Positions 1 through 63,950 of a stretch of DNA of 64,000 bases are shown here, piece after piece. Source of the DNA: Parcubacteria group bacterium. GTDB lineage: Bacteria; Patescibacteriota; Patescibacteriia; Patescibacteriales; GWC2-42-12. The notes under the pieces are model-generated. The model was given only the letters and a program-made list of their open reading frames with translations, was not told where the DNA came from and did no database searches. Location of the stretch: positions 3,306 to 67,305 of the forward strand of contig JACPHD010000020.1 in the NCBI GenBank assembly GCA_016188785.1. Reading direction: 5' to 3'. A program made the position numbers and the translations under genes. The first letter of the stretch is position 1. Each line of letters begins with the position of its first letter.

Positions 1-7
1 TTCGTCT

Positions 8-2893
8 ATGGAGGAGATCGGCAAACAGGCCGAGCAGATGAAGCAAGAGGCTGAACAGGCAATGAGGGAAGCAAAAGAAACTGGTGCTGATGAGATTACC
101 GAGGAGCAATTGCAAAAGCTGAAAGAGCAACTTGAACAATTGGAAGAGGTTGCCAAGCAAATTGCCGAGAGCGGCGCGTTGGAAAAAGAGCTCGCAAAAC
201 CGGAAGAGGAGCCGATGACTTACAATATCAAGGAATACGGCATTAACGAAGCCGAGCTCACTTCCGAGCAATTGGAGAATCTGCAGAAAACCAGGGTCTT
301 TGCACAAAATACTTCAAAAGTGTATCGCACGGCGATGCATCTTTTGATGATCGGCTACCAGCAAAAAAATCCTAAGTTTACGGACAAGATGATGCAGAAA
401 ATGATAGAGCGCAGTTATGATCTTCCTGATTTTTCTTTATATGGATCACGAGCGGCAGATGAATTCTTGTCAAAACAACAAGAACTAGGCATAGACGGTT
501 TTAGCGACAATTTTTTAGTGAATTTCCAACTGCCCCGACCTCTCGCAAAATTTTGGTACAAGGGCGGCAATGGGAGCAAGTCCGTACCGGTAAAAGAGGG
601 CGAGATCGAATGGGGGCATTTTTATAGAATGTGCATGCCCGTAATTTATAACGGAGTTGATCGGGCGCAGATGTCCGGTCTTTATCTGAATCGTTTGAAT
701 CAGTTCGGTCAGCATGATCCCAAAAAGTATTATTATCTTTGGGAGACCATAGACCTGGCGCAGGAAAAACAAAAACAGGAAAATGAAGCTCTTAAGGAAA
801 TGCAGGAACAGCTGAAAGAGATGAAAGAAAAATTGGATGAGATGAACGAACAATCCGGGAAGTCCGATGAAAAAGATGACCAAGCCGGACAAAGCGGAGA
901 AAAAAGCGAAAGCTCTAAACAAAAATCCAACGAGCAGAAACAATCCGTCCAGGAAAAGCAATCATCCGAACAAGGCGAGAATAAACCGTCGGCGCAAGAA
1001 CTTAAAAAGCAAATCGATGAATTGAAAAAGCAGGTTGACCAAATGATCAAAGACGCAGAAGAGCGGGGCGACCAAGCCGCGGCAGATGAGCTGAAAGAGA
1101 TGAAAGAACAGCTCGAACAAATGTCAAAAAAACTTGAAAAGGATGAACAGGGGGAAAAGGGCGAATCCGGCGAGCAGGGAGAGGGTCAAGAATCTGAAGG
1201 GCAAGAGGGTGAATCCGGTGAAAGTGAGGGTCAAGGCGAATCATCTCAAGGAAAAGGATCTGGCCAATCTGGCTCCGGGCAAGGACAAGGTCAGGGTGAA
1301 GGTGCAGGAGAAGGCGGTCAGGGTGGATCACAAGGCGGCCAGCCGGGTAAAGGTATGGGGCAAGGCGGTGGTCAACCTCAACCGGGCGGTCAAAAAGGAA
1401 TGGGTCAGGGGCCCGGCCAACCGGGAGGAGCAGAAGGGTCTGGTGAAATGGGTGGCGGCATGACTTCCCCGGGAGAGATGAAAGAATTGATGGATCAGAT
1501 GCAAGAGATGCTTAATCAGGCCAAAGAGCAAGGTGGTGTTCCCGGAGGTCAAGAAGCCATACAACAAATGCTTGACGAGCTTGCTTCGATGCAAGAAAGT
1601 TTGCAATCAGGAGCAAGTCCTCAAGAGTTAGCCAAGCAGATGTCGGAAGCTATGCAGAAAATGTCCGAAATGATGGGCGGCGAGGAAGGAGGCGAACCGG
1701 GACAGGATGGCCAAGAACAAGGGCAACAGAGTGAATCCGGTGGAGCATCAGGCCAAGAATCTTCTGGCGAAGGGTCTGAACAATCTGAAGGCGAATCCGG
1801 AGAGCAATCACATGACCAATTCCAAAAGGGCGGGAAAACGCATGAAGGAGCTGTTGAGGGAATGTTTAGTAAACCCAATGAAGAGTTATTAAAGCAACTT
1901 CGACAAGCTGAGGAAATGGTCGGCAGTAAATTTACCACTCAAGATGAAAGTGGCAATCTTGTGGCGAGAGATATGAGTCAGTCAATGGGTGAAAGTTTAA
2001 AAGCTGAAACCTCTCAACTTTCTCAAGCTCATGTGCGACAGATGGAAACGTTGGAAGAGCTCAAAAGACAACAGCAGTCAAAAATGGAAGCCATGTATCG
2101 GGAAATGTCGGGGCTTGATGGTGAAACTCTTCGCGTTTATGTGGATTATATGGAATCGTTGAAAAATTTTCGTGGAGAATTTAAAGAATTTTTAATAAAA
2201 AAGTTAAAATTAGATAAAAAATATTTAGAAGAGCGTAATAAAACAAGAGGAAGTCGTATGCAGAGAGATTTCCAGCGAAAAATAGTTGGTAAAAATCGTG
2301 ACGGTAAGCTAATAATACTTCCTACAATCATGAAAAGAAAAAGACCTCCAAGTCATCCAAATATTTGTTTTTCTGTAATAATTGATAATTCCGGTTCATG
2401 CTCTGGAGAAATAATTGAACAAGAAAAAAGAGTAGCGGTAAATTTGATTGAACTGGCAGATGAGCTTGATATAAATTTGGAAATAGTAACCTTCGGCGGT
2501 CCTGATCAATTTACATTTCTTAAGACATTCGAACAGAATATCGCCGGCGATGACTTGCAAAAAGTGGTATTGCTCAACGCAGATCAGGGAACGCCCGATG
2601 TTGTGACTCTTGATGCCGCCTGCACAAGTATGGAAAAATTCACTGATAAGTTTAGACGATCATACAATTTTGTGTATTTTATGACCGACGGACAATCCGG
2701 CTCAGGCTCAATTCAAGAAGTCATTAAAAAACACAAAAAGGATATGGTGATCACCGGTATCGGGATGGCTGGGGCGGCGCAAAACATAGCTCAGACATGG
2801 GGCAGAAATGCGGTCGAAGTGCCCGAAGTAAAAAAATTATCCGATGCTTTTATTAGAAAAGTTGAGGATCAGATAGATCAAACATTCGATTAA
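8..2893 (+). CDS. von Willebrand factor A (vWA/MIDAS) domain protein with a long acidic/Gly-Gln-rich low-complexity linker; possibly 5'-partial
   Basis: 961-aa ORF with no in-frame stop up to the window edge. C-terminal VIIDNSGSCSG matches the DxSxS MIDAS motif, and FMTDGQSGSG lies in a vWA-like fold pattern. Residues ~250-620 are E/K/Q/G/S low complexity. Confidence 0.7.
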   Translation: MEEIGKQAEQMKQEAEQAMREAKETGADEITEEQLQKLKEQLEQLEEVAKQIAESGALEKELAKPEEEPMTYNIKEYGINEAELTSEQLENLQKTRVFAQNTSKVYRTAMHLLMIGYQQKNPKFTDKMMQKMIERSYDLPDFSLYGSRAADEFLSKQQELGIDGFSDNFLVNFQLPRPLAKFWYKGGNGSKSVPVKEGEIEWGHFYRMCMPVIYNGVDRAQMSGLYLNRLNQFGQHDPKKYYYLWETIDLAQEKQKQENEALKEMQEQLKEMKEKLDEMNEQSGKSDEKDDQAGQSGEKSESSKQKSNEQKQSVQEKQSSEQGENKPSAQELKKQIDELKKQVDQMIKDAEERGDQAAADELKEMKEQLEQMSKKLEKDEQGEKGESGEQGEGQESEGQEGESGESEGQGESSQGKGSGQSGSGQGQGQGEGAGEGGQGGSQGGQPGKGMGQGGGQPQPGGQKGMGQGPGQPGGAEGSGEMGGGMTSPGEMKELMDQMQEMLNQAKEQGGVPGGQEAIQQMLDELASMQESLQSGASPQELAKQMSEAMQKMSEMMGGEEGGEPGQDGQEQGQQSESGGASGQESSGEGSEQSEGESGEQSHDQFQKGGKTHEGAVEGMFSKPNEELLKQLRQAEEMVGSKFTTQDESGNLVARDMSQSMGESLKAETSQLSQAHVRQMETLEELKRQQQSKMEAMYREMSGLDGETLRVYVDYMESLKNFRGEFKEFLIKKLKLDKKYLEERNKTRGSRMQRDFQRKIVGKNRDGKLIILPTIMKRKRPPSHPNICFSVIIDNSGSCSGEIIEQEKRVAVNLIELADELDINLEIVTFGGPDQFTFLKTFEQNIAGDDLQKVVLLNADQGTPDVVTLDAACTSMEKFTDKFRRSYNFVYFMTDGQSGSGSIQEVIKKHKKDMVITGIGMAGAAQNIAQTWGRNAVEVPEVKKLSDAFIRKVEDQIDQTFD

Positions 2894-5727: not shown

Positions 5728-5903
5728 GTCATTGCGAGGACCTTAATTTTAAATTGTCATTGCGGGCTCCCGCCCGCCTCGCAAGCGAAGCGTTGCGGGC
5801 GCGGTGACCCGCAATCCAGGACGATGGGAATATTGACCAACATGGTTTTTCTGGATTCCTGCTTTCGCAGGAATGACGAAAGTAATTTACTCTTCGCAAT
5901 GAC
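5728..5903. repeat. cluster of GTCATTGCG/GGAATGAC TIR-type palindromic repeats with a nested GC-rich CGCAAGC palindrome
   Basis: GTCATTGCGAG (5728), GTCATTGCGGG...CCCGCCCGCCTCGCAAGCGAAGCGTTGCGGGC...CCCGCAATCCAGG, CTGGATTCCTGCTTTCGCAGGAATGAC, and CTTCGCAATGAC (ends 5903). The same words recur at 12 or more other loci. Confidence 0.85.
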
Positions 5904-12592: not shown

Positions 12593-12595
12593 TTT

Positions 12596-17823: not shown

Positions 17824-18762
17824 ATGACGGAAGAAAAAGAGATTAATAATTTTGGTTGTAAGTACGCTATTAGCGGCGCCAGCGCGTTTATTTTTAATGA
17901 GCAAGGCAAATTATTTTTAACCAGATCGCCGAAATGGAATAATTTATGGGTGGTCCATGGCGGCAAAGTTGAATTTGGCGAGAGTTTAGAGGAGGCTTTA
18001 AAAAGGGAAATTAAAGAAGAAACCAATTTATCTATAAGAGATATCAGATATTTTATAACAGTAGAATTAAATAGAACCGAAGCGAGGCCTGATCTGCATA
18101 TGGTGGTGAATGAATATATCGCGCTAACCAGCGATAGCGAGGTAAAATTAAATAATGAACATAGCGAATTTGATTGGCGTACGCCTGAAGACTGGCTTAA
18201 AGAAAAAGATTTATATCCTAATGTCAGAGAGGCAATTGAATATTATTTAAATGAATTTTTACCTAAACAAGACTGTGAAAATTTATATAAGCGCGCTTTA
18301 GCCGATTATCAAAATTTATTAAAACAAACGGCTAAAGAAAAAATGCAATTCGCGGCTTACGCCAATGAGCAGATGTTAAGAGAAATTTTGCCGGTGTATG
18401 ATCATTTAAAATTAGCCATGGAGCATCATACCGCGTCCGCAACGCCTTGCCACGCCTGCCTTGCAAGCAAGGCATTGCGGGCAGGCTTGCGAGACGGGCG
18501 GGACGGCGAGTCAGCCGACGACTGGCTTAAAGGCGTAGAGTATGTGGTTAAGCAATTTAAAGATGTTTTGGAAAAAAGCGGCATTGAAGAGATAAAAATT
18601 GAAGATAAAAAATTTGACCATAATTTAATGGAGGCGTTAAATAGCGAAGAAACCGATGACCAAAATCTTGACGGCCAAGTGGCCAGACAGATTAAAGCCG
18701 GCTATAAGCTGAACGGGAAAATTATTGAGCCGGTTAAGGTGGTGGTATATAAGTTGAAATAA
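17824..18762 (+). CDS. grpE: NUDIX hydrolase domain fused to nucleotide exchange factor GrpE
   Basis: 312-aa continuous ORF. The N-terminal half carries a NUDIX box, GGKVEFGESLEEALKREIKEETNL. The C-terminal half is GrpE-like (LREILPVYDHLKLA...GYKLNGKIIEPVKVVV). A GC-rich palindrome is inserted in-frame at ~18431-18510. Confidence 0.8.
   Translation: MTEEKEINNFGCKYAISGASAFIFNEQGKLFLTRSPKWNNLWVVHGGKVEFGESLEEALKREIKEETNLSIRDIRYFITVELNRTEARPDLHMVVNEYIALTSDSEVKLNNEHSEFDWRTPEDWLKEKDLYPNVREAIEYYLNEFLPKQDCENLYKRALADYQNLLKQTAKEKMQFAAYANEQMLREILPVYDHLKLAMEHHTASATPCHACLASKALRAGLRDGRDGESADDWLKGVEYVVKQFKDVLEKSGIEEIKIEDKKFDHNLMEALNSEETDDQNLDGQVARQIKAGYKLNGKIIEPVKVVVYKLK
18431..18510. repeat. GC-rich palindromic element in-frame inside grpE
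   Basis: CCGCGTCCGCAACGCCTTGCCACGCCTGCCTTGCAAGCAAGGCATTGCGGGCAGGCTTGCGAGACGGGCGGGACGGCG. GC content is far above that of the flanking gene. It is related to the CGCAAGC/GCTTGCG family. Confidence 0.7.
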
Positions 18763-19406: not shown

Positions 19407-19690
19407 GTCATTGCGAGGAGCCCGCATCTGCGGGAGATGAAGCAATATTTTTATTTGTCATTCCGGCCTCCGAGCCGGAATCCAGGATTCAGTGGCACAG
19501 ACATCTTATTTTATTATAACCTTAGCAAACCGAACTGCCTACGGACTTATCATGGATTCCCGCTTTCGCGGGAATGACAAAAAGAAAGTAGTCGCTCGCC
19601 ATGACAATTACCTTTTGTCATTCCCGAAGCCGCAGGCTGTCGGGAATCCATGGGTGGGCGGTAGGGATGTTTTTATTGCGAGGACGCGAG
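19407..19690. repeat. cluster of GTCATTGCG/GTCATTCC...GGAATGAC TIR-type repeats
   Basis: Contains GTCATTGCGAGGAGCCCGCATCTGCGGGA. It also holds a full unit, GTCATTCCGGCCTCCGAGCCGGAATCCAGG...ACCGAACTGCCTACGG...GGATTCCCGCTTTCGCGGGAATGAC, followed by GTCATTCCCGAAGCCGCAGGCTGTCGGGAATCCA. Confidence 0.85.
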
Positions 19691-20090: not shown

Positions 20091-20290
20091 GTCATTGCGG
20101 CGCGCTTAAGCCTGGATTACCCCCGCAGATGCGGGGCGGGAATGACAGAAAAAAAGACCGGAATAACAAAGAAAAAATAATTAACAAATAATAATTAATT
20201 CGTTTTTGTGAAAAGTTGTGGTGATAAAGCAAGCTCTAAATAAATATTATGTTTGTGAGATTGCTTCGTCGCTTCGCTCCTCGCAATGAC
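20091..20290. repeat. cluster of GTCATTGCG/GGAATGAC and GAGATTGCTTCG...CTCGCAATGAC repeats
   Basis: GTCATTGCGGCGCG...CCCCCGCAGATGCGGGGCGGGAATGAC (20091-20146) and GTGAGATTGCTTCGTCGCTTCGCTCCTCGCAATGAC (20255-20290). Confidence 0.85.
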
Positions 20291-22626: not shown

Positions 22627-22652
22627 TTCGTAATTGATAATTGTTAATTGAC

Positions 22653-23759
22653 ATGTCTAAAGACTATTACAATATACTCGGCGTGGACAAGAACGCTTCA
22701 CCGGACGAAATTAAAAAAGCTTTTCGTAAGCTGGCGCATGAGCATCATCCGGATAAAAAGAGCGGCGATGAAGCTAAATTCAAGGAGCTTAATCAAGCTT
22801 ATCAGATTTTAAGCGATCCTAAAAAACGAGCCCAATACGATCAATTCGGCTCGGATTTCGGAGAAGCTCGAGCCGGTGGTGGCCAGGGTTTTTCCGGTTT
22901 TAGTGATTTTACCGGCGGGTTTAACATCAATATGGATGATCTGGGCGATATTTTCGGCGGGCTGGGCGATGTCTTTAATTTTTCCGGTCAGGGCGGTTCT
23001 CGCGGCCGGCGGTCCAGGCGCGGCAATGATATTCAGGCGCTTTTGGCCATTGATTTTAATGAAGCGGTTTTTGGCGCGGAAAAGGAAATCAGTTTAAAAA
23101 AAACCGTGAAATGCTCCAGGTGCCAGGGCGAAGGGCGAGAACCGGGCACAGAGGTTATTACTTGTAAAACCTGCGGCGGCCAAGGGCGCGTCACTAGAGT
23201 TCAGCGGACAATTTTAGGCAATATGCAAGTGCAAATGACCTGCGAGGCTTGCCATGGCGAGGGTAAAATATTTAAAGAAAAATGTTCAGCTTGCCGCGGC
23301 GCCGGCTTGGCCCAGCAAATCGTTAATTTAAAAATTAAAATTCCGGCCGGCATTGATAATAATGAAACCATAAGATTATCCGGCCAGGGCGAAGCCGCGC
23401 CCAAAGGCGCTTCGGCCGGCGATCTGTATTTAAAAATAAGAGTTAATGCTGACCGCCGTTTTGAGCGCGACGGCGTTAATATAAAATCTTGGGCGGAAAT
23501 CAGCTTTTCCCAGGCCGCTTTAGGCGATAAAATTGAAGTAGTGACGGTTGACGGGCCGGTTGATTTAAAAATTCCCGAAGGCACGCAGTCGGGCAAAATT
23601 TTTATTTTGCGCGGCAAGGGCGTGCCTTATTTAAACGGCCGCGGCGCTTTCGGCAGGACTCAAGCTAAGCGCGGCGATCATTTGGTTGAGGTGATTGTTA
23701 AAACGCCGGCCGGATTGTCAAAGAAGCAGAAAGAATTATTGAAAGAGTCTGGCCTATGA
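22653..23759 (+). CDS. dnaJ: molecular chaperone DnaJ
   Basis: Start moved to the ATG at 22653 (MSKDYYNILGV). J-domain HPD motif, a G/F region, and four CxxCxGxG zinc-finger repeats. Confidence 0.95.
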   Translation: MSKDYYNILGVDKNASPDEIKKAFRKLAHEHHPDKKSGDEAKFKELNQAYQILSDPKKRAQYDQFGSDFGEARAGGGQGFSGFSDFTGGFNINMDDLGDIFGGLGDVFNFSGQGGSRGRRSRRGNDIQALLAIDFNEAVFGAEKEISLKKTVKCSRCQGEGREPGTEVITCKTCGGQGRVTRVQRTILGNMQVQMTCEACHGEGKIFKEKCSACRGAGLAQQIVNLKIKIPAGIDNNETIRLSGQGEAAPKGASAGDLYLKIRVNADRRFERDGVNIKSWAEISFSQAALGDKIEVVTVDGPVDLKIPEGTQSGKIFILRGKGVPYLNGRGAFGRTQAKRGDHLVEVIVKTPAGLSKKQKELLKESGL

Positions 23760-25195
23760 AAACTTACCATATAATCACCATCGGCTGCCAGATGAATAAG
23801 TCTGACAGCGAAAGACTGGCCGGCCGGCTGGAACAAAATGGCTATAAAAAGACTGATAATAAGTATCAAGCCGATTTAATTGTGGTTAATACTTGCGGCG
23901 TGCGCCAATCGGCCGAGGATAGAATTTACGGTTTGATTCCCGGGATTAAAAAAGCCAATCAAAAAGCCAAGATAGTTTTAACCGGCTGTCTGGCGGCTAG
24001 GCAAGATGTAAAAAATAGATTGAAAGATTATGTTGATGAGTGGCTGCCAATCAGTGAAATTTTCAATTTTCAATTTTCAATTTTCAAACAAACTCTAATT
24101 TTCAATTTTCAAGCAAATGCGAAATGCAAAAACGACTATTTAAAAATCATTCCTAAATACGAATCTGAATTTTCCGCTTTTGTGCCCATCGGCAATGGTT
24201 GTAATAATTTTTGTTCCTATTGCGTCGTGCCCTACGCGCGCGGCCGGGAAGTTTATCGGCCGGTTGAAGATATATTGGCTGAAGTAAAAGAGCTGGTTAA
24301 AAAAAATTATAAAGAAATTATTTTGATCGCGCAAAATGTCAATTCATATAAATCCCAAATTCCAAATCCCAATAACCAAACAAATTCCAAATCCCAAATT
24401 AAAAATTCAAAAAATAAAATAATAGATTTTTCAGACTTGCTTAAGATGGTCAACGGCATTCAGGGTGATTTTTGGCTTAGGTTTATGACTAGCCATCCTA
24501 AAGATATGTCGGATAAGTTGATTGAAACTATGGTTGACTGCGAAAAAGTCTGCCATCAGGTTCATTTGCCGGCGCAGGCCGGCGATGATGAGGTGCTTGC
24601 TAGCATGAATAGAAAGTATAAAATAGCCGATTATGTTGAATTGGTTGGGAAGATAAGAAGTATTTTAAATGACCAAATCCCAATAACCAATAACCAAACA
24701 AATTCTAAATTCCAAGTCCCAAATTCCAAACAAAGTTTGTGGAAACAACCAGTTTCAATTACTACTGATCTTATAGTCGGCTTTCCGACTGAAACTAAAA
24801 GGCGGTTTGCTAATACAGCCAAACTGATGCGGCAAATAAAATTTGATATGGCTTATATCGCTAAATACAGCGCGCGGCCGGAAACCGCGGCCGCGAAAAT
24901 GCAAGATAATGTGTCTACGGTTGAAAAGAAAAGGCGCGAGCAAATCTTAATGAAAATTTTAAGAAAAACAGCGCTGGAAAATAATAAAAAATATCTGGGC
25001 AAAATTATGAAGGTGCTGGTGGAAGGGGAAAGTAAAAGCGAAGAGTGGGCAGGGCGGACGGCAACCAATAAAAATGTCAAATTTCCATCCGCCAGCTGGC
25101 GGACAAATGACAAAAATAATTTAATAGGGAAGTTTGTAAATGTTAAAATTATTAAGGCGCAAGATTTTGGCCTGGCCGGGGAGTTAATCAGTTAA
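23756..25195 (+). CDS. miaB: tRNA-i6A37 methylthiotransferase MiaB with three in-frame AT-rich repeat insertions
   Basis: 479 aa. TIGCQMNKSDSE N-terminus, radical SAM motif CNNFCSYCVVPYARG, and a TRAM-like C-terminus. Insertions at 24058-24113, 24350-24420 and 24672-24732. Confidence 0.9.
   Translation: MKTYHIITIGCQMNKSDSERLAGRLEQNGYKKTDNKYQADLIVVNTCGVRQSAEDRIYGLIPGIKKANQKAKIVLTGCLAARQDVKNRLKDYVDEWLPISEIFNFQFSIFKQTLIFNFQANAKCKNDYLKIIPKYESEFSAFVPIGNGCNNFCSYCVVPYARGREVYRPVEDILAEVKELVKKNYKEIILIAQNVNSYKSQIPNPNNQTNSKSQIKNSKNKIIDFSDLLKMVNGIQGDFWLRFMTSHPKDMSDKLIETMVDCEKVCHQVHLPAQAGDDEVLASMNRKYKIADYVELVGKIRSILNDQIPITNNQTNSKFQVPNSKQSLWKQPVSITTDLIVGFPTETKRRFANTAKLMRQIKFDMAYIAKYSARPETAAAKMQDNVSTVEKKRREQILMKILRKTALENNKKYLGKIMKVLVEGESKSEEWAGRTATNKNVKFPSASWRTNDKNNLIGKFVNVKIIKAQDFGLAGELIS
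24058..24113. repeat. heptamer tiling ATTTTCA x4+ inside miaB
   Basis: AAATTTTCAATTTTCAATTTTCAATTTTCAAAC...AATTTTCAATTTTCAAGC, translated as EIFNFQFSIFKQTLIFNFQ. Confidence 0.85.
24350..24420. repeat. AT-rich CCAAAT/AACCAAA tiling inside miaB
   Basis: AAATCCCAAATTCCAAATCCCAATAACCAAACAAATTCCAAATCCCAAATTAAAAATTC. The same word set occurs in the intergenic elements at 35472-35644 and 42859-42985. Confidence 0.8.
24672..24732. repeat. AT-rich CCAAAT/AACCAAA tiling inside miaB (second copy)
   Basis: CCAAATCCCAATAACCAATAACCAAACAAATTCTAAATTCCAAGTCCCAAATTCCAAAC. Confidence 0.8.
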
Positions 25196-35471: not shown

Positions 35472-35644
35472 AATGTAAAGTTAAAATTACAAATAACAAA
35501 TTCCAAACAATATCTAAATTCAAATTTACTAATATCTAGAATTATATTGTTAGTATTTATAATTTAGAATTTGTTTGTGATTTGGCGTTTGGTTATTGGA
35601 ATTTTTAATGATATTTTTATTTTTAACTGTAATTTTACATTTTG
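35472..35644. repeat. long AT-rich tiled palindrome between rplK and rplA
   Basis: AATGTAAAGTTAAAATTACAAATAACAAATTCCAAACAATATCTAAATTC pairs with ...TTAACTGTAATTTTACATTTT. The 50-nt word TTACAAATAACAAATTYCAAACAATMTCTAAATTC recurs at 42917 and, inverted, at 37201. Confidence 0.8.
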
Positions 35645-37084: not shown

Positions 37085-37335
37085 TTCTAATTTTTTTAAT
37101 TGACCTAATTAAATCCCAATGTCTAATAAAATTCCAAATCACAAACGCCAAATCACAAACAAATTCAAAATAACAAAGCCTAAACGATATATTTATTTTA
37201 GATATTGGTAAATTAGAATTTTGATATTGTTTGTCATTTGTTATTTGTAATTTTAGAAATTTGCTTGGTCATTGGTCATTTAGATTTATGATTTAACTTA
37301 GAAATTAGGTAATTAGATATTTTAGAGATTAATTT
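37085..37335. repeat. AT-rich tiled repeat region (CAAATCACAAAC, TTACAAATAACAAAT-family words)
   Basis: Contains an inverted copy of the 35487/42917 word (GATATTGGTAAATTAGAATTTTGATATTGTTTGTCATTTGTTATTTGTAA) and tandem TCATTGG/AAATCAC words. Confidence 0.7.
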
Positions 37336-37708: not shown

Positions 37709-37841
37709 GTCATTGCGAGCGACCGGAGGGAGAGAAGCAATCTCACGAATTAGGAGTTTAAACTAAAGTGGAAAATTTTATAGCAATTCGTCGTACGTGA
37801 GATTGCTTCGTCCCCCGCAGATGCGGGGTCCTCGCAATGAC
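37709..37841. mobile_element. MITE-like element with ~35-nt TIRs (GTCATTGCGAG..GAAGCAATCTCAC / GTGAGATTGCTTC..CTCGCAATGAC)
   Basis: 133 nt. The TIRs carry nested hairpins (CCCCGCAGATGCGGGG). The interior GGAGTTTAAACTAAAGTGGAAAATTTTATAGCAA is the reverse complement of the interior of the 41381-41505 copy. Confidence 0.75.
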
Positions 37842-40610: not shown

Positions 40611-40647
40611 AAAATTACGAATTAGAAATTACGAATTACGAATTTTT
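40611..40647. repeat. heptamer tiling (ATTACGA/ATTAGAA) after the clp gene
   Basis: AAAATTACGAATTAGAAATTACGAATTACGAATTTTT. Confidence 0.75.
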
Positions 40648-40650
40648 CTT

Positions 40651-40849
40651 GTCATTCCCGCGCAGGCGGGAATCCAGGAGGGAGTGGTAGGAAGATTATT
40701 ATATATATGAAGATGGCCAGTATATAGAAATTGAACGCTATATAATATAAGATAATCCGGCTTGGCGTGATTTGTTTGTTAATATGCTATAAATAACAGT
40801 TGTACGTTTAATCCCTGGATTCCCGATAGCCTGCGGCTTCGGGAATGAC
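40651..40849. mobile_element. MITE-like element with hairpin-containing TIRs (GTCATTCCCGCGCAGGCGGGAATCCAGG / CCTGGATTCCCG..CGGGAATGAC)
   Basis: 199 nt. The left and right ends are reverse complements, and each end folds on itself. The interior is AT-rich and non-coding. Confidence 0.75.
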
Positions 40850-40940
40850 AAATAAATGACAAATAAGAGAAAAGGACGGCCTCATATAAATTTTAGAGGA
40901 GAAAATTTATATAAAGTCGTCCTTGGTTAAAGACTTGGGC

Positions 40941-41210
40941 TTAGTAAAAGGTTACTGAATTCAACCCTTCTATGCGGAGAAAAACATTTACCTCGCTGGA
41001 GTCAATGTACGGCATATTTTGTCCTATTTTTTTATAACATTTTACTTCTTTTACCGTTATTCCCATATTCCCCAGCCACTCGCGGGCAATGGTCTCAAAT
41101 TGATCTTTCATGGGCCAATGTTTTCGTTTAAGACCCAAAAAGGCAACAACCGACTGACCAGGAGAAAAGATCATCGGCTCCGACGGGTTAGACAAAAGAT
41201 AATTTTCCAT
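40941..41210 (-). CDS. hypothetical protein (orphan flanked by MITE-like elements)
   Basis: 89 aa. A strong SD (AAGGGGAG) lies upstream of the ATG. No motif was recognised. Confidence 0.5.
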   Translation of the reverse strand: MENYLLSNPSEPMIFSPGQSVVAFLGLKRKHWPMKDQFETIAREWLGNMGITVKEVKCYKKIGQNMPYIDSSEVNVFLRIEGLNSVTFY

Positions 41211-41380
41211 TTTTTCTCCCCTTAGATGAGCGATTTTGAAAAAGTTAATTGCCCATGTTCACCTTAATTTCACCTCCTTATTTTGTTTATTTTTAGGGAT
41301 TTAGTTTATCCATAAAGTTTGTTATAACCTAATTTTTTTAAAAAAGCAAGTTTAAATTGTGGATAAGTTTATACTAAGAT

Positions 41381-41505
41381 GTCATTGCGAGCGACCGGAG
41401 GGAGCGAAGCAATCCCACTAACAAAGAGTTGCAATAAAACTTTCCACTTTACTTTAAACTTCTTGTCCGTGAGATTGCTTCGTCGCTATCGCTCCTCGAA
41501 ATAAC
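41381..41505. mobile_element. MITE-like element of the GTCATTGCGAG family (right TIR degenerate)
   Basis: GTCATTGCGAGCGACCGGAGGGAGCGAAGCAATCCCAC ... GTGAGATTGCTTCGTCGCTATCGCTCCTCGAAATAAC. The interior matches the 37709 copy in inverted orientation. Confidence 0.7.
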
Positions 41506-41516
41506 AAAAAAATAAT

Positions 41517-42858: not shown

Positions 42859-42985
42859 AATTAGAAATTTAAAATGTAAATATCAAAATGAAAAATGACA
42901 AGGCAAAATTTAAAATTACAAATAACAAATTTCAAACAATCTCTAAATTCTAATTTGCTAATTTCCAAAAAAACTTAATTTTTTA
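42859..42985. repeat. AT-rich tiled repeat between rplU and recR
   Basis: Contains TTACAAATAACAAATTTCAAACAATCTCTAAATTCTAATTTGCTAATTTC, which is near-identical to 35487-35536. Confidence 0.8.
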
Positions 42986-43597
42986 GTATTTGTTATTTAG
43001 AATTTGTTTGTTCCTATACTTTAGCGCGTTAGTCAGGGTAATTTCGTCCGCGTATTCTAAATCCGCGCCCATGGGCAGGCCCTTAGCTAAGCGGGTGATT
43101 TTTATTTTATGTGATTTTAATAATTTAGTCAGATACATAGAAGTAGTTTCGCCTTCAAGATCAGGATTAAAAGCCAAAATAACTTCTTTGGCGCTAGTTT
43201 GTTTTAAATGGTTTAATAGGGCCTTAAGATTTAACTGCTCCGGTTTTATGCCTTCAATCATATTTATGACTCCGCCTAAAATATGATAGACGCCGTTATA
43301 TTGCTTAGTAGCTTCAATGGCTAACATATCCCGCGTGTCCGCGATTAGGCAGATGATAGACTGATTTCTTTTCGCGTCAGAGCAGATTGGGCAAGGGTTA
43401 GATTCGGCTATGGCTAAACAGGTTTCGCAAACTGTGGTTTTTTCTTTAACTTCGGCCAGAGCTTGAGCGAATTGCTGCAGCCATTCAGCGTGCTGGCTTA
43501 ATAAATAAAAAACATAGCGCTCGGCCGTTTTAGGGCCGACGGTCGGCAGCTTGGAAAAATAATTTATTAGATTTTGGATAGAAGTGGGATAACGCAT
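42983..43597 (-). CDS. recR: recombination protein RecR
   Basis: 204 aa. LPTVGPKTAERY HhH motif, a C4 zinc finger (CETC...CPIC), and a Toprim domain. Confidence 0.95.
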   Translation of the reverse strand: MRYPTSIQNLINYFSKLPTVGPKTAERYVFYLLSQHAEWLQQFAQALAEVKEKTTVCETCLAIAESNPCPICSDAKRNQSIICLIADTRDMLAIEATKQYNGVYHILGGVINMIEGIKPEQLNLKALLNHLKQTSAKEVILAFNPDLEGETTSMYLTKLLKSHKIKITRLAKGLPMGADLEYADEITLTNALKYRNKQILNNKY

Positions 43598-44075: not shown

Positions 44076-44224
44076 GTCATTGCGAGCGACCCCGCATCTG
44101 CGGGGGAGCGAAGCAATCTCACGGATGTCTTGTAAGTATGATGGTGGTAATATTTTAGTGAAAAGTCGTTGTTTGTGAGATTGCTTCGTCGCTTCCGCCT
44201 GCTGGCGGAGCTCCTCGCAATGAC
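44076..44224. mobile_element. MITE-like element of the GTCATTGCGAG family
   Basis: 149 nt. GTCATTGCGAGCGACCCCGCATCTGCGGGGGAGCGAAGCAATCTCAC ... GTGAGATTGCTTCGTCGCTTCCGCCTGCTGGCGGAGCTCCTCGCAATGAC. Confidence 0.8.
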
Positions 44225-45713: not shown

Positions 45714-45763
45714 CCCCGTTAAATCCCAATTATTATTGGGGCGTAAAGCATATTTTAACGGGG
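45714..45763. repeat. CCCCGTTAAA...TTTAACGGGG hairpin element, copy 3
   Basis: Arms TTAACCCCGTTAAA / TTTAACGGGGTTAA with a 30-nt interior. Confidence 0.8.
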
Positions 45764-45788
45764 TTAATCAATCGCTAAATGCGGTTTC

Positions 45789-45850
45789 GCGCTGTTACCG
45801 CGCCCGCTAACGCCTAAGCGTAGCGATGGCGGGCGGGGCTCAGTTGGCAG
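45789..45850 (+). pseudogene. tRNA-Lys 5' fragment (22 tRNA nt, 26-nt repeat with the 5' TTTC flank) interrupted by a 40-nt GC-rich palindrome
   Basis: GCGCTGTTA (45789-45797) plus GCTCAGTTGGCAG (45838-45850) equals the first 22 nt of the tRNA at 46106, and the preceding TTTC is also shared. The insert at 45798-45837 is CCGCGCCCGCTAACGCCTAAGCGTAGCGATGGCGGGCGGG. Confidence 0.8.
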
Positions 45851-45859
45851 GCAAAGTAT

Positions 45860-46096
45860 ATGTATTATACTTATGTACTAATCAGTATAAAAGATAAAAA
45901 ATTATATATTGGGTTTACTAATGATTTAAGCAAAAGGTTTCTTGAACATCAGAATGGCCAAGTAAATTCCACAAGAGATAGAAGACCATTAAAATTAGTA
46001 TATTATGAGGCTTGCCATGATAAATATAAAGCCTTAGGCAGGGAAAAATATTTTAAAACAGGTTTTGGCAGAAAGTTTTTAGAAAATAGAATATAA
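45860..46096 (+). CDS. small GIY-YIG nuclease-domain protein
   Basis: 78 aa. YYTYVLIS...KLYIGFTNDLSKRFLEHQNG...RPLKLVYYE is the GIY-YIG (URI) signature. Confidence 0.85.
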   Translation: MYYTYVLISIKDKKLYIGFTNDLSKRFLEHQNGQVNSTRDRRPLKLVYYEACHDKYKALGREKYFKTGFGRKFLENRI

Positions 46097-46105
46097 TATA
46101 ATTTC

Positions 46106-46181
46106 GCGCTGTTAGCTCAGTTGGCAGAGCAGCTCCCTTTTAAGGAGAAGGTCACTGGTTCGAATCCAGTACAGCGCACCA
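46106..46181 (+). tRNA. tRNA-Lys (anticodon UUU), CCA encoded
   Basis: The cloverleaf was read manually. Acceptor GCGCTGT/ACAGCGC, D arm GCTCAGTTGGCAGAGC, anticodon loop CTTTTAA, T arm ACTGGTTCGAATCCAGT, and terminal ACCA. Confidence 0.9.
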
Positions 46182-47351: not shown

Positions 47352-47567
47352 GCCACCCTAGCTCAGTTGGTAGAGCAACGGTTTTGCCCGCCCGCCTCGC
47401 AAGCGAAGCGTTGCGGGCAGGCCCGCCCGCCTTGACATGCCGAAGTAGCTCAATGGTAGAGCAACGGTTTTGTAAACCGTAGGTTACCGGTTCAAATCCG
47501 GTCTTCGGCTCAAGGCATGTCGGGCGCGGTAAACCGTAGGTCGTCGGTCCGAATCCGACGGGTGGCT
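47352..47567 (+). tRNA. tRNA-Thr(UGU) outer gene, interrupted in the anticodon loop by a 143-bp insert (halves 47352-47386 and 47530-47567)
   Basis: The joined halves give acceptor GCCACCC/GGGTGGC and D arm GCTCAGTTGGTAGAGC. The anticodon arm is ACGGT-TTTG|TAA-ACCGT. The T arm GTCGG-TCCGAAT-CCGAC has an unusual C at position 55. Confidence 0.7.
47439..47510 (+). tRNA. tRNA-Thr (anticodon UGU), intact, nested inside the outer tRNA-Thr gene
   Basis: Acceptor GCCGAAG/CTTCGGC, D arm GCTCAATGGTAGAGC, anticodon arm ACGGT-TTTGTAA-ACCGT, and T arm ACCGG-TTCAAAT-CCGGT. No CCA is encoded. Confidence 0.9.
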
Positions 47568-47577
47568 CTTTTTTAAT

Positions 47578-48948
47578 ATGATGAAGACTTACAAAATTTA
47601 TACTTTAGGCTGTAAGGTCAATCAATATGATTCAGGCAAGCTGTCCGCCCAGCTTCAGGCAGCCGGATTAGTTATGGCGGGTAAGCAAGCTGATCTGGCC
47701 ATAATCAACAGCTGTGCCGTGACTAAAACCGCCATGATAAAAAGCGGACGGATGATTAGATCTGCTAAAAAGGAAAATCCAGGGGCGAAAATTGCGTTAA
47801 TTGGTTGCTGGGTTAGAGCTTCTGAAACTAAACTTGCGGGGGTAGATTTTGTAATCGGAGGCAAAGAAATTATTAAACAGATAAATAGAATTATGAATTA
47901 TGAATCAGGAATTAGGAATAAAATTCAAAATCCAAATAATAAAAATAATAAAATAATTATAAATAGTGATAAATCTCGTTATTTTATAAAAATTCAGGAT
48001 GGCTGTGAGCAGTTTTGCAGTTATTGCATTATTCCGTACGCCCGTGGCGGACTAAAAAGCCGGGGAGAGGCGGAAGTTATTGGCGAGGTTGAGCAGGCGG
48101 TAAAAGCCGGCTATGGCGAAATTGTTTTGTCCGGTATTCATTTGGGGCTATACGGAAAAGAAAGTCAACTGCTATATTCTGTCATTCCGGCCTCCGAGCC
48201 GCCCCGCAAAATGCGGGGTGGATTGCGGATCACCCGCCCGTACCGAACGGGTACGTTCGGGCGGGAGCCCGCAATGACAAATTATTATAATGGCGCTCGT
48301 GATGAAAACTTGGCCAGCCTTTTAAAAAAATTAGTTAAACTTAAAAATTTAGGCCGGATCAGGTTGAGTTCTATTGAAATTACCGAAGTAAGCGATGAAT
48401 TGATTGAACTAATAAAAAACAGCGGCAAAATCTGCCGCCAGCTGCATCTGCCGCTCCAGTCCGGTTCGGATAAAATTTTAAAACTAATGAACCGGCCTTA
48501 TGATATGAATTATTTTAAAAATAAAATTAAACAAATCAGGCGAGTTCTGCCGGATATGGCTATTACTACCGATGTCATCGTCGGTTTTCCCGGAGAAAGC
48601 GAAAAAGATTTTCGCGCTACGGAAAAATTTATCAGACAAATAAAATTCAGCCGTTTGCATGTTTTTCCCTTTTCCGCTCAGGAAAAAACGTCGGCCGCGA
48701 AAATGTCCGGACAAGTTAAGGAAAAAATAAAAAAGCGCCGCGCTGATTTATTGAGAAAGTTAAATTTGAAGTTGATGGCAGATTATAAAAATAAATTTAA
48801 AGGCCGAGACCTGAAAATCGCGGTCGAGCAGATCAAACAAAATAAAGTTATGGGCAAAACCGAGTATTATTTTGATGTTTCAGCCGATAAGAAAAGTTTG
48901 AAAAATAAAAATATTAGAGTAGGGCAGATTATCAAGATAAAAATTTGA
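47578..48948 (+). CDS. mtaB: MtaB-like radical SAM methylthiotransferase with two in-frame repeat insertions
   Basis: 456 aa. TLGCKVNQYDS N-terminus, radical SAM motif CEQFCSYCIIPYARG, and a TRAM-like C-terminus. Insertions at 47888-47945 and 48181-48279. Confidence 0.85.
   Translation: MMKTYKIYTLGCKVNQYDSGKLSAQLQAAGLVMAGKQADLAIINSCAVTKTAMIKSGRMIRSAKKENPGAKIALIGCWVRASETKLAGVDFVIGGKEIIKQINRIMNYESGIRNKIQNPNNKNNKIIINSDKSRYFIKIQDGCEQFCSYCIIPYARGGLKSRGEAEVIGEVEQAVKAGYGEIVLSGIHLGLYGKESQLLYSVIPASEPPRKMRGGLRITRPYRTGTFGREPAMTNYYNGARDENLASLLKKLVKLKNLGRIRLSSIEITEVSDELIELIKNSGKICRQLHLPLQSGSDKILKLMNRPYDMNYFKNKIKQIRRVLPDMAITTDVIVGFPGESEKDFRATEKFIRQIKFSRLHVFPFSAQEKTSAAKMSGQVKEKIKKRRADLLRKLNLKLMADYKNKFKGRDLKIAVEQIKQNKVMGKTEYYFDVSADKKSLKNKNIRVGQIIKIKI
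47888..47945. repeat. heptamer tiling (GAATTAT, GAATCAG, GAATTAG...) inside mtaB
   Basis: GAATTATGAATTATGAATCAGGAATTAGGAATAAAATTCAAAATCCAAATAAT, translated as IMNYESGIRNKIQNPNN. Confidence 0.8.
48181..48279. mobile_element. GTCATTCC...CGCAATGAC TIR element (99 nt = 33 codons) in-frame inside mtaB
   Basis: GTCATTCCGGCCTCCGAGCC...CCCCGCAAAATGCGGGG...CGGGAGCCCGCAATGACA. The GC-rich block translates as VIPASEPPRKMRGGLRITRPYRTGTFGREPAMT. Confidence 0.8.
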
Positions 48949-49064: not shown

Positions 49065-49886
49065 ATGGAACTAAAAGAATTTATTTTATTACTGGCTAAA
49101 AATAAAGCAACCATGTTTTTTGTTGTTTTTATTTTCTTAATTTTAGCCTTAATTTTGACTGTCATACAACCTTTTAAATACGGGGCCAACTCGCGGGTTT
49201 TAGTAATTCAGAATTTTAGCAATCCGGATCCGTATCTGGCCGCAAAATCAACCGAATATTTAAGCAATGTTTTAGCTAAGGTAATTTATTCCAATTCATT
49301 TTTTGACAATGTTCTAAGCTCCGGTTATTTTATCAATAAAAATTATTTTGGCCAGACCGTAAAAGGCCAAATGAAAATTTGGCATAAAACCGTTAGCGCT
49401 AAAGCCGTGAACGATTCGGGCATAATTGCTATTAATGTTTATCACAAAGACCGCCCTCAGGCTGAGCTGATCAATCGTGCCGTGATCTACACTTTGCAAG
49501 CCAAGCATGGGCTTTATCATGGTGGCGGAAACAGCGCGGCCATAAAAGTTATTGACCAACCCATCACCAGCAATTATCCGGTTCAGCCGAATTTAATTTT
49601 AAATTTTGGTTTGGCTTTAGCCTTAGGCTTGGTTTTTGCTTTAACTTATATTTATTTATTTCCCGAAGAAAAATATAATATCAAGCTGGCGCCTAAATTC
49701 GCCGCGCGCGTTACCCGGGCCGGCTTATTGGAGAAATCGGCGCTGGCGCCGGCCACGCTCGAGCCGGACTATAAGTTAAGCGAAAATTTTAATAAAATAA
49801 ATGATAATGATTATGATGATCTGGACATTCATGAAGAAATAATTCAGCGCGGCAGTATGAAAAATATATTTGGTAAGCCGTTTTAA
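49065..49886 (+). CDS. Wzz-like polysaccharide chain-length determinant protein
   Basis: 273 aa. It has an N-terminal TM after LKEFILLLAKNK, a periplasmic-type domain, and a second TM (LILNFGLALALGLVFALTYIYLF). Confidence 0.6.
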   Translation: MELKEFILLLAKNKATMFFVVFIFLILALILTVIQPFKYGANSRVLVIQNFSNPDPYLAAKSTEYLSNVLAKVIYSNSFFDNVLSSGYFINKNYFGQTVKGQMKIWHKTVSAKAVNDSGIIAINVYHKDRPQAELINRAVIYTLQAKHGLYHGGGNSAAIKVIDQPITSNYPVQPNLILNFGLALALGLVFALTYIYLFPEEKYNIKLAPKFAARVTRAGLLEKSALAPATLEPDYKLSENFNKINDNDYDDLDIHEEIIQRGSMKNIFGKPF

Positions 49887-49890
49887 TTTT

Positions 49891-49970
49891 CTGGATTTCT
49901 GTCTGCGCAGGAATAATCGTCATTCCTGCGAAAGCAGGAATCCAGAAAGAATTTTTCTGGATTTCATGGG
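49891..49970. repeat. CTGGATTYC/GGAATGAC-family repeat cluster
   Basis: CTGGATTTCTGTCTGCGCAGGAATAATCGTCATTCCTGCGAAAGCAGGAATCCAGAAAG...CTGGATTTCATGG. Confidence 0.8.
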
Positions 49971-61356: not shown

Positions 61357-61357
61357 G

Positions 61358-61589
61358 TTGAATTTATTATTGTCATTGCGGTAGTTGCCTCCGGATTGTC
61401 ATTGCGGCCTCCGAGCCGCAATCCAGGTTTCAACGCCACGAATATTCTATTTAACAATCAACTCAACCAACCGAACTGCCTACGGGTTTAACCTGCCGCG
61501 CCCGCCATGCGAGCCGCAAGGCGAGGCGGGCGGGGATTCCCCCCGCCCCGCATTTGCGGGGCGGGGCGGGAATGACAAGAAAGAAAAGC
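61358..61589. repeat. 232-bp composite of GTCATTGCGG/GGAATGAC and GC-rich palindromic repeats bounded by a 20-bp direct repeat
   Basis: GGCTATGTTTATGTTGTAAG occurs at 61338-61357 and at 61590-61609. The interior shares GTCATTGCGGCCTCCGAGCCGCAATCCAGG and ACCGAACTGCCTACGG with the unit at 19447-19578. Confidence 0.8.
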
Positions 61590-61691
61590 GGCTATGTTTA
61601 TGTTGTAAGGAGAGGAGGGAATGAACATTGACAATTAAGTAAGTGGTGGCGAAAAAGGGAAAATTAAAAAAACAAGAAGAGGAGAAAGGCA

Positions 61692-63360: not shown

Positions 63361-63434
63361 GTCATGCCTGCGAAAGCAGGCATCCAGAAATTACACGAAG
63401 ATTTTTTCTGGATTCCTGCCTGCGCAGGAATGAC
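63361..63434. mobile_element. minimal (74-nt) member of the GTCAT..CCAG / CTGGATTCC..GGAATGAC TIR family
   Basis: GTCATGCCTGCGAAAGCAGGCATCCAG-20 nt-CTGGATTCCTGCCTGCGCAGGAATGAC. Confidence 0.75.
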
Positions 63435-63494: not shown

Positions 63495-63950
63495 ATGACA
63501 TTATTTATCAATACAACCTATAATGACCAGGTTCTGATTATGTTAAAACATGGCGATGGTTCAGTCTTGGCCAGTAAAAAATTCAAAGCGCGTTTTCGGC
63601 AGAGTGAAAAGCTTTTGCCGGCCATAGATAAACTGCTTAAAGACAATCAATTAAAATTAAGTGATTTGAGCGGCCTGGAAGTGGAAAACCGCGGCGGTTC
63701 GTTCACCCCGTTAGAAAAACCTTTTCTAACGGGGTTCACAGCTTTGCGTATCGGCGTGGTTACGGCCAACGCCCTGGCCTACGCGCTGGCAATTCCGCTT
63801 ATGGCGGCCGGAAGCAAAAAGTTAAAAATTAAAAGCCAAAAATTTTCCGTAGTTGAGCCTTTATATGACCGAGAGCCGGAGATAACAGTTAAAAAGATTT
63901 CTATTTCTGTCATTGCGGCCTCCGAGCCGCAATCCAGGAGTAAACCGTAA
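63495..63950 (+). CDS. tsaB: tRNA t6A37 biosynthesis protein TsaB (YeaZ-like), short, with a hairpin insertion in its conserved motif and a repeat-derived C-terminal tail
   Basis: 151 aa. GGSFT[PLEKPFLTGFT]ALRIGVVTANALAYAL compares with the canonical G(P)GSFTGxRIG(x)A motif. The last ~14 residues (VIAASEPQSRSKP) are read from a GTCATTGCGG repeat. Confidence 0.7.
   Translation: MTLFINTTYNDQVLIMLKHGDGSVLASKKFKARFRQSEKLLPAIDKLLKDNQLKLSDLSGLEVENRGGSFTPLEKPFLTGFTALRIGVVTANALAYALAIPLMAAGSKKLKIKSQKFSVVEPLYDREPEITVKKISISVIAASEPQSRSKP
63706..63734. repeat. CCCCGTTAGA...TCTAACGGGG hairpin element, copy 4 (inside tsaB)
   Basis: CCCCGTTAGAAAAACCTTTTCTAACGGGG, flanked by the direct repeat GTTCAC (63701-63706 and 63734-63739). 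Confidence 0.85.
63909..63938. repeat. left-end unit of the GTCATTGCGG...CGCAATCCAGG repeat at the tsaB 3' end
   Basis: GTCATTGCGGCCTCCGAGCCGCAATCCAGG is identical to 61395-61424. Confidence 0.85.

Follow-up and report, generated by a model that had tools for sequence, protein, structure and literature searches.

The repeats described here resemble most closely the NTS of Neisseria (CGTCATTCCCGCGMAVGCGGGAATCYRG), which include the dRS3 repeat and for which a wider class, the Ssn-related motifs (SRM), has been defined (Chenal et al., Nat Commun 2025; PMC11893778). The partner protein SsnA is a 94-amino-acid (aa) single-domain GIY-YIG protein, which binds the folded motif as single-stranded DNA (ssDNA) only and cuts a few bases upstream of it; the cutting depends most on the three bases before the palindrome and the binding on the C after the palindrome, and the published catalytic residues are Y6, Y17 and E64 (PMC11893778). 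Hairpin binding and cutting by an Ssn protein of about 94 aa is known in Neisseria and Wolbachia, Rickettsia is among the SRM-rich genera, and ssn genes typically have their motif on their flanks (PMC11893778). The only role demonstrated for NTS and SsnA is the modulation (limitation) of natural transformation in Neisseria; the idea of a mobile element was raised by the same authors as a hypothesis only, and whether hairpins and nuclease form such an element was left open (PMC11893778). Here, units of this kind are analysed in 64,000 nucleotides of the genome of a Parcubacteria group bacterium (contig JACPHD010000020.1, positions 3,306 to 67,305; this whole stretch is called the window), with the hairpin element at 37709..37841 as the element under study. 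Conserved genes of this stretch, and the nearest relatives of these genes, put it in the Patescibacteria of the candidate phyla radiation, close to Candidatus Falkowbacteria.

The family to which this element belongs, with units that start with GTCATT, can be assigned by its sequence to the SRM class, the units being oriented ssDNA hairpins of the Neisseria NTS/dRS3 kind and not an orphan family. In the reading that we favour, with some reserve, the full form of the element is a cassette in which two inverted units enclose an ssn gene (unit→ssn←unit), and the window holds gene-less pairs that depend, now or once, on an Ssn-like enzyme encoded elsewhere. Since its kind was described in 2025, the main family is not categorically new; it adds a variant and extends the host range. 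New are two variants of the unit, named types B and A' below, and the arrangement as gene-less pairs, with nesting and with insertions in frame, in a genome of the candidate phyla radiation (CPR). Searching the literature for type B sequences and for later work on Ssn gave nothing beyond PMC11893778.

Relationship of the units to the NTS and to the SRM pattern

Three types of unit were distinguished:

Type A unit: GTCATTCCYGC-loop-GCRGGAATCCAG
Type A' unit: GTCATTGCGGC-CTCCGA-GCCGCAATCCAGG
Type B unit: GTCATTGCGAG(S)GA-loop-G(M)CGAAGCAATCTCAC

Type A is nearly identical to the NTS (PMC11893778). Five units of the window are at most two mismatches away from the Neisseria NTS 28-mer, and one of these, at 40651-40679, differs from it at one base. 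As is characteristic of SRM/NTS repeats, the copies are in large excess over chance: GTCATTGCGAG, with at most one mismatch allowed, has 12 matches versus 0.56 expected (12 being reached in 0 of 100 shuffles), GTCATTCC has 13 versus 0.88, and the strict SRM pattern HGTCWYN(0-2)YYVSBRHN(0-5)WNVSBRGN(0-2)RNCYNB has three versus 0.05. The strict pattern catches only two of the about 30 true units, as type A' (with its ATTGC stem), type B and the units whose loops are long or nested lie outside it, and anchored hairpin scans were therefore used. The curated reading of each head and its downstream sequence gives about 30 oriented units at 12-14 loci of the window. The GTC before the stem and the C after the stem are kept in all curated units of types A, A' and B (GTC-ATT…AAT-C); types A' and B keep exactly the GTC and the C that are reported to be critical for SsnA.

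When compared with the SsnA system (PMC11893778), the units are alike in being oriented hairpins with a 5' GTC and a 3' C, in their many copies, in flanking genes, and in the unit-ssn-unit cassette layout that is found in genomes related to the window. They differ in the host, a member of the CPR/Patescibacteria (Patescibacteria, candidate phyla, CPR and Parcubacteria do not occur in the text of PMC11893778), in the types A' and B, which lie outside the published pattern, and in that no ssn gene is present in the window; also, the units of the window are mostly arranged as inverted pairs, some of them in frame in genes, and a second palindrome family is found in their loops. The architecture is also that of the Neisseria intergenic mosaic elements (NIMEs), which are short variable blocks bounded by inverted hairpins of the dRS3 type (ATTCCC-N8-GGGAAT), in mosaic or nested intergenic clusters, and the elements of the window are such blocks. 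The differences are the unrelated interiors, the other phylum, and the ATTGC/GCAAT stems and GA-rich type B of the window.

Ssn-like genes between inverted units in other genomes

Reference Ssn-like genes flanked by SRM were obtained from annotated records through a plasmid search with a 78-aa GIY-YIG protein of the window (gene 45860-46096, discussed below), which gave no close relatives of the query itself. The Azospirillum gene is flanked by CGTCATCCCCGCGAAGGCGGGGATCCAGG pairs, the Planktothrix gene by GTCATTCTGAGTGAAACGAAGAATCTC units, and the Sinorhizobium gene has a CTCAT-headed hairpin variant on both sides. The proteins of these three genera have 94-97 aa and the C-terminus EKxIKxWxRxxKxxLIxxxNPxWxDL; the unit-flanked Ssn-like proteins overall have 93-97 aa, with a C-terminus that can also be given as EKxIKGWxRxKKxxLIxxxNPxFxDL. 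The spacing of the Tyr, Tyr and Glu residues of this family, 11/47 residues, is the spacing of the published Y6, Y17 and E64.

The Ssn-like family is common in Patescibacteria, and in five independent CPR contexts (related or metagenome loci, for which L-numbers are used throughout: L031, L117, L119, L122 and L132) the gene has GTCATYCTGAGCGNAGCGAAGRATCT units on both sides, in the order unit(+)…ssn…unit(-). These are the type B units of the window with the stem pair CT/AG replacing GC/GC. The locus L119 additionally holds GTCATTGCGAGG pairs like those of the window. Two of the cassettes are inside conserved operons, in L122 (4955-5335) between glyQ and glyS and in L132 (4860-5320) between atpA and atpG. 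The ATP synthase operon of L132 also carries NYN, NUDIX and PDDEXK inserts. The same unit types that flank ssn at these five loci are present in the window without a flanked ssn gene, and when all eight independent contexts are considered, the GIY-YIG gene of 93-97 aa is the only gene found between such ends.

A trace of such a gene may be present in the window. The interior of the element 40651-40849 (40691-40792, frame +2) reads EDYYIYEDGQYIEIERYII, stop, DNPAWRDLFVNML, stop (EDYYIY…YIEIERYII, stop, DNPAWRDLFVNML, stop), which resembles the N-terminal KNYYIYI and the C-terminal LIxxxNPxWxDL-stop of the Ssn-like proteins, the pieces having the order and the orientation relative to the flanking units that are expected. 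The C-terminal motif, NPAWRDL followed by a stop, has p = 2.4e-4 in shuffles, and over 16 nt the same interior agrees at 94% with the beginning of the ssn gene of L117. These similarities are suggestive of a deletion relic of an ssn gene.

Architecture and folding of the elements of the window

The GTCATT elements of the window are the following (ORF, open reading frame; z, fold energy as ssDNA compared with shuffled sequence):

37709..37841: the element under study, a type B SRM composite; left unit 37709-37746 (+), right unit 37801-37841 (-) with a nested CCCCGCAGATGCGGGG hairpin inside it, 54-nt interior; whole-element fold z = -9.0
5728..5903: nested locus; truncated type B heads at 5728 (+) and 5903 (-) around an A'/A pair
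5756-5821 (+) and 5849-5877 (-): the A'/A pair within 5728..5903, with a GC palindrome in the loop of the (+) unit
19407..19605: nested locus; B unit 19407-19446 (+) and B head 19605 (-) around an A'/A pair; interior 77% identical to the interior of 61398-61495 (repeat family D10)
19457-19487 (+) and 19550-19578 (-): the A'/A pair within 19407..19605
19617..19690 (+): solo type A unit 19617-19653 and a B-head fragment, upstream of the orphan ORF 19738-20082
20091..20146: minimal inverted pair; A' head 20091 (+), A unit 20146 (-), nested CCCCGCAGATGCGGGG hairpin
20234..20290 (-): solo canonical type B unit GTCATTGCGAGGAGCGAAGCGACGAAGCAATCTCAC and adjoining interior remnant (repeat family D6)
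40651..40849: type A composite; units 40651-40679 (+) and 40813-40849 (-), 133-nt interior
41381..41505: type B composite with a degenerate right end; interior shared, inverted, with 37709-37841 (repeat families I2, D7)
44076..44224: type B composite between ybaB and dnaB; nested GC hairpins in both units; z = -7.1
48181..48278: A'/A' pair, read through in frame as part of the radical-SAM methylthiotransferase gene 47578-48948; its loop holds the GC palindrome 48231-48267
49886..49970: degenerate reverse unit 49886-49916, then type A unit 49918-49947 (+)
61372..61576: A' head 61372 (+), A' unit 61398 (+), interior, A unit 61576 (-); two GC palindromes, 61496-61535 and 61539-61568
63361..63434: short type A pair; left unit with the compensated stem change ATGCC…GGCAT; z = -7.8
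63909..63939 (+): solo A' unit, which provides the C-terminal codons and the stop of a TsaB-like ORF

A sequence-only reading of the window had described an abundant family of oriented hairpins with inverted pairs resembling terminal inverted repeats, and this description is borne out by the counts and by the curated reading, every locus that it listed carrying such units. Most units are arranged as inverted pairs, with gaps of 6-133 nt between the paired units, and solo units are found at 19617, 20290 and 63909. The interiors of 37709-37841 and 41381-41505 are shared in opposite orientation (82% complementary over 82 nt), and the nesting is of two kinds, the type B heads 5728/5903 and 19407/19605 surrounding A-type pairs and GC hairpins being hosted in the loops of units; both had been noticed in the sequence-only reading.

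The same reading had taken each end to be a hairpin in its own right, which holds for type A, for which the DNA fold of a single unit has z = -3.2; for bare type B units the nearest-neighbour fold energy is not significant (z = -0.3 and +1.5). Whole inverted pairs fold as ssDNA far better than shuffled sequence (z = -7 to -9). The type B unit keeps a compensated 5-bp stem and a centre of GCGAAGC or of its variant GCGNAGC; GCGAAGC forms an unusually stable DNA mini-hairpin, which is outside the model of these energy tables. Stem variants are always matched on both sides, both in the window (ATTCC/GGAAT, ATTGC/GCAAT and one ATGCC/GGCAT) and outside it (ATTCT/AGAAT and ATCCT/AGGAT).

Target-site duplications were looked for at 13 loci. 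At 12 of these no flanking direct repeats above chance were found, and the only long flanking repeat is the 20-nt direct repeat GGCTATGTTTATGTTGTAAG at 61338-61357 and 61590-61609, which lies 13-14 nt off the ends of the element 61372-61576 and is the end of a glycosyltransferase gene. As flanking direct repeats are found at one locus only, the insertion chemistry is probably not that of a DDE transposase. This result bears on the possibility that the elements are classical miniature inverted-repeat transposable elements (MITEs), which would be deletion derivatives of an insertion sequence (IS), with a DDE transposase elsewhere recognizing TGTCATT… as terminal inverted repeats. Terminal inverted repeats, variable interiors and a high copy number are indeed what such elements have, and yet the 12 loci without duplication do not show the fixed-length duplication by which MITEs are known, the presumed terminal repeat is an oriented unit that is also found solo and in direct arrays, the gene between such ends elsewhere is only the GIY-YIG gene, and the window has no transposase. 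It is improbable that the elements are MITEs.

Turnover between related species

In five related species the gene order of the region 27-51 kb is conserved, and the orthologous spacers can be compared across species, at 72-84% protein identity. The 133-nt element 37709 is absent from L003, L004 and L005, where the spacers have 21, 21 and 2 nt versus 149 nt in the window, and the 149-nt element 44076 is absent from L003, L004 and L010, where the spacers have 20-24 nt. In L008, L010, L011 and L012, spacers of 13-193 nt stand in place of the block 40611-41516. The element 48181 forms an insert of about 47 aa in the radical-SAM methylthiotransferase gene of the window; at the equivalent site L003 has a different insert, of about 40 aa and made of type B units, and L004 has none. 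The density of units also varies: 17 kb of L004 contain no unit at all, and 13 kb of L005 contain three. Elements of this family appear and disappear from one related species to the next.

The sequence-only reading, which had interpreted the repeats as mobile elements, had proposed comparing strains or populations for presence and absence and for target-site duplications. Variable presence between related genomes is supported (37709-37841 and 44076-44224 are missing from orthologous spacers of 2-24 nt). A classical cut-and-paste model of the MITE type is not supported, as no consistent target-site duplication is seen, with flanking direct repeats at one of the 13 loci. Also, the repeats are not strictly intergenic, both 48181-48278 and the palindrome 18431-18506 being in frame inside genes.

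For small elements of different kinds, the spacer around element 37709 is a hotspot. In L008 (9380-10000) it contains an ORF bounded by AT-rich inverted repeats, which resembles a GxxExxY/PD-(D/E)XK protein by eye only, and in L006 (9880-10000) it contains an inverted repeat of the ACGAATTACGAAT type.

The turnover also bears on another explanation, in which the units are Ssn target sites kept by the host for a cellular role, such as trimming incoming ssDNA and so tuning recombination near certain genes, their copies having grown by recombination and gene conversion. This is the role that would agree with the modulation of transformation, the only one demonstrated for NTS and SsnA (PMC11893778); furthermore, the units bracket genes (the orphan ORF 19738-20082 and the ORF 40941-41210), and target-site duplication is not consistent. 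Against it stand the high presence/absence variation between related species, with positions that are not conserved, the in-frame insertions inside essential-type genes, and the unit-ssn-unit cassettes inside conserved operons, all of which look selfish. It is rather unlikely, with a modest chance of being right, that a host role explains the units, and such a role and a mobile element are not mutually exclusive.

A second palindrome family and the 78-aa GIY-YIG gene

The window encodes one small GIY-YIG nuclease, which had been overlooked in the sequence-only reading. The features that belong to this nuclease and to the GC palindromes are the following:

45860..46096 (+): gene of a 78-aa single-domain GIY-YIG nuclease (Pfam PF01541, E = 4e-16), the candidate partner of the GC palindromes
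45785..45851 (+): duplicated leader and tRNA-Lys positions -3..22, split by the 41-nt GC palindrome 45798-45838
47352..47568 (+): resident tRNA-Thr gene, interrupted in the anticodon loop by 143 nt
5769..5803: GC palindrome in the A' unit 5756, at the loop position between CTCC and GA
18431..18506: nested GC palindromes, translated in frame in the GrpE part of the NUDIX-GrpE fusion ORF 17824-18762

The protein is a member of a clade found throughout the CPR, in which identity is 65-88% over many candidate phyla and the C-terminus is REKYFKTGFGRRFLKNRI. Residues Y5, Y16 and E62 are invariant in this clade, and the window protein has the single domain, the length of less than 150 aa and the catalytic residues of the Ssn family (cd10448). 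The catalytic cores of the 78-aa and of the Ssn-like proteins align with an hhalign probability of 98.6% (E = 5.5e-16, 65 columns); the alignment with the SRM-flanked Ssn-like proteins covers residues 2-66 only, and the C-terminal tails differ. By these comparisons the 45860-46096 protein probably belongs to a GIY-YIG subfamily different from that of the Ssn-like proteins.

It was considered whether this nuclease acts on the GTCATT units, since the window has no other selfish gene of nuclease type and the catalytic core shares homology with that of the Ssn-like proteins. In 80 metagenome loci that encode the 78-aa clade (508 kb), about three genuine GTCATT units are found and none is adjacent to the gene, which corresponds to 0.12 per 10 kb versus 2.5 per 10 kb in the window. 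Since the units are nearly absent and never adjacent at these 80 loci, the 78-aa protein is not the enzyme paired with the main family. L004, a relative, carries the gene and yet has no unit in 17 kb, the C-terminal tail of the protein is unlike that of the Ssn-like proteins, and the flanks of the gene carry GC palindromes instead of SRM units (0/80 homologous loci have an adjacent unit). This candidate partner is therefore largely refuted by the scan of the homologous loci, and such an activity on the units is very improbable.

The GC palindromes have the form CCCGCCCGCC…GGCGGGCGGG. In the sequence-only reading they had been listed as related variants of the GTCATT family; their sequences and surroundings instead point to a second family or system, separate from the GTCATT units and tied to the 78-aa GIY-YIG gene and to tRNA 5' ends. 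Within 200 nt of the 78-aa ORF their arm cores have a density of 3.88 per kb, versus 0.107 per kb elsewhere, a 36-fold difference. Three layouts are found at the clade loci. In the first, the ORF lies between two palindrome arms. In the second, an intact palindrome in a duplicated 5' piece of a tRNA gene is followed by the ORF and then by the complete tRNA gene. In the third, seen for more distant members, the ORF is bounded by other short inverted arms, CCCTGTTAAATA… or CCCCGTTAGAGA…. A tRNA gene on the same strand starts at most 250 nt downstream in 36 of the 80 loci, and 12 amino-acid types are represented. At about 20 loci, as well as in the window and in L004, the duplicated tRNA piece consists of two collinear blocks on either side of the palindrome, the break falling between tRNA positions 6 and 21. 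The second layout occurs in its tRNA-Lys form in the window (45785-46181, with the real tRNA-Lys at 46106-46181, just downstream of the 78-aa GIY-YIG gene) and in L004 (13960-14330), and it is also present in loci among L032-L100. L003 and L010 are without the 78-aa gene.

The insert in the resident tRNA-Thr gene consists of the GC palindrome 47387-47421 and of palindrome arms around a second, intact tRNA-Thr(TGT) gene at 47439-47511, so that the insertion brings its own replacement tRNA; in L003 and L004 the tRNA-Thr gene is uninterrupted. Within the GTCATT family, a GC palindrome is found at the same fixed loop position, between CTCC and GA, in two A' units, and the loops CTCCGA of three other A' units (19457, 61398 and 63909) are empty. 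The targets seen for the GC palindromes are the tRNA D-arm, the tRNA anticodon arm and this loop of the first family. No description of the pairing of the 78-aa GIY-YIG clade with GC palindromes or tRNA 5' ends was found in the literature searched, and this pairing, with its targeting of hairpin loops and tRNA genes, is new.

A third palindrome type, CCCCGTTAGA…TCTAACGGGG, is present at 63706-63734 and 45714-45763. From the copy at 63706, which has a GTTCAC direct repeat, the TsaB-like ORF gains 11 in-frame codons within its GSFTGLRIG motif. In L080, L087 and L104-L110, GIY-YIG ORFs lie between arms of this palindrome type.

Proposed mode of spread and comparison with other hairpin repeats

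In the favoured reading, the full CPR element would be the cassette unit→ssn←unit, and the form seen in the window would be its gene-less version, with two inverted units around a short interior, accompanied by solo units and nested copies. The pairs would spread, or would have spread in the past, in trans through an Ssn-like enzyme encoded outside the 64 kb. It is possible that this happens by nicking of the folded hairpins in ssDNA at replication or at DNA uptake, and that the nicking is followed by copying or recombination and not by cut-and-paste of the DDE type. The GC palindromes would form a second layer, as a sister system tied to the 45860-46096 gene that inserts into the loops of existing DNA hairpins.

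A substrate of hairpins in ssDNA is also used by the repetitive extragenic palindromes (REP and their bacterial interspersed mosaic elements, BIME), which are spread by RAYT (REP-associated tyrosine transposase) enzymes, and by the 'peel and paste' elements IS200/IS605. These are alike in having a small enzyme gene between its own hairpins, many gene-less copies and no target duplication; they differ in that the enzyme here is GIY-YIG and not HUH/Y1, and no GTAG-type head is seen. To our knowledge, no strand-transfer activity is known for Ssn. The hairpin repeats in mosaic clusters, with their similar ssDNA logic, could suggest that the units are REP/BIME palindromes spread by a RAYT (Y1, IS200/IS605-like), or else RNA-level elements such as terminators. 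When the about 55 ORFs of the window were scanned with Pfam, housekeeping and cell-envelope genes were seen and no transposase, recombinase, RAYT-like or Y1 gene, in agreement with the sequence-only reading, which had noted that a transposase or RAYT-like gene is lacking in the window; the gene flanked by units elsewhere is GIY-YIG and not Y1. At the RNA level, Rfam at gathering thresholds gives two tRNAs only, 0 of 37 terminator-like sites in 36-51 kb coincide with a unit, and the units have no T tracts. Both versions of this explanation are hardly credible.

Rickettsia palindromic elements (RPE) have 100-150 bp and no assigned enzyme. The elements of the window are like them in being palindromic repeats that are tolerated in frame in genes of a reduced, host-dependent bacterium (here, 48181 in the radical-SAM gene and palindromes in the GrpE and TsaB-like ORFs), and this comparison concerns layout. 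The mobile GC clusters of yeast mitochondria are short GC-rich palindromes in an AT-rich genome, which insert in genes and in each other. The likeness here concerns the nested GC palindromes only (GC-rich palindromes, AT-rich genome, self-nesting and insertion in genes), and the difference is that palindromes of the window type are tied to a GIY-YIG ORF, sometimes between the arms, and to tRNA 5' halves.

Several points weigh against the reading of the window as a set of gene-less pairs served by an Ssn-like enzyme. Ssn has been shown to bind and to cut, and never to move DNA (PMC11893778), and the published SRM search pattern does not cover the types A' and B. A six-frame profile search of the window finds no Ssn-like gene and only the 78-aa GIY-YIG gene, and the 5.8 kb further left of the window also have no Ssn-like gene, so that in this stretch the partner enzyme of this genome is unobserved. 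The profile score of the putative ssn relic, 2.5 bits, is not significant, being equalled in 31 of 300 shuffles. The fold energy of the bare type B unit is likewise not significant, the stem covariation is descriptive and not a test (the unit catalogue had been selected for pairing), flanking direct repeats are found at only one of the 13 loci, and empty sites are known at the between-species level only, with none at strain level. The positive evidence is the identity of the family and the link between unit type and Ssn-like gene in other genomes, together with the presence/absence differences between species and the nesting, from which we infer mobilization by Ssn.

A wider generalization can be offered tentatively, as a possibility with an appreciable chance of being right on which we would not yet rely. 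Small single-domain GIY-YIG nucleases could be the moving enzymes of an unrecognized class of ssDNA hairpin elements, with two sister clades, one of Ssn-like proteins of 93-97 aa with GTCATT…AATC units and one of 78-aa proteins with CCCGCCCGCC…GGCGGGCGGG palindromes. Each would occur as arm-ORF-arm cassettes and as ORF-less miniatures, and the second would have the loops of DNA hairpins already present as its specific insertion sites and would duplicate the 5' part of the tRNA gene.

Other features of the window

The orphan ORF 19738-20082, which encodes 114 aa and is bracketed by SRM units, has homologues with 60-85% identity in DPANN archaea (Woesearchaeota, Nanoarchaeia, Aenigmarchaeota and Diapherotrites). 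This degree of identity suggests a recent inter-domain transfer; beside the archaeal copies of the ORF no SRM units are found.

AT-rich low-complexity inverted repeats, AATTACGAAT… and AATTTTCAATTTTC…, form further intergenic repeat families. They are found at:

12496-12596
18761-18875
22609-22651
24058-24732
35477-35622
37111-37267
40611-40646
42899-43011

Three copies of the AT-rich repeats are inside the MiaB ORF 23756-25195. AT-rich repeats are also on the flanks of the gene 22264-22626, which encodes a 23S-rRNA-intervening-sequence protein (PF05635) and has as its neighbours putative dnaK and dnaJ genes, named by position and size only.

Significance

The window and its relatives are a natural test set for the question of Ssn mobility, as they contain operon cassettes, gene-less pairs that differ between sister species, and in-frame insertions. 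Site-specific ssDNA nucleases are useful tools in the view of the authors who described Ssn (PMC11893778), and the system of the 78-aa clade and the GC palindromes may add new ones. Much of the 'orphan peptide' content of CPR genomes, and of the repeat content that breaks their assemblies, comes from these hairpins.

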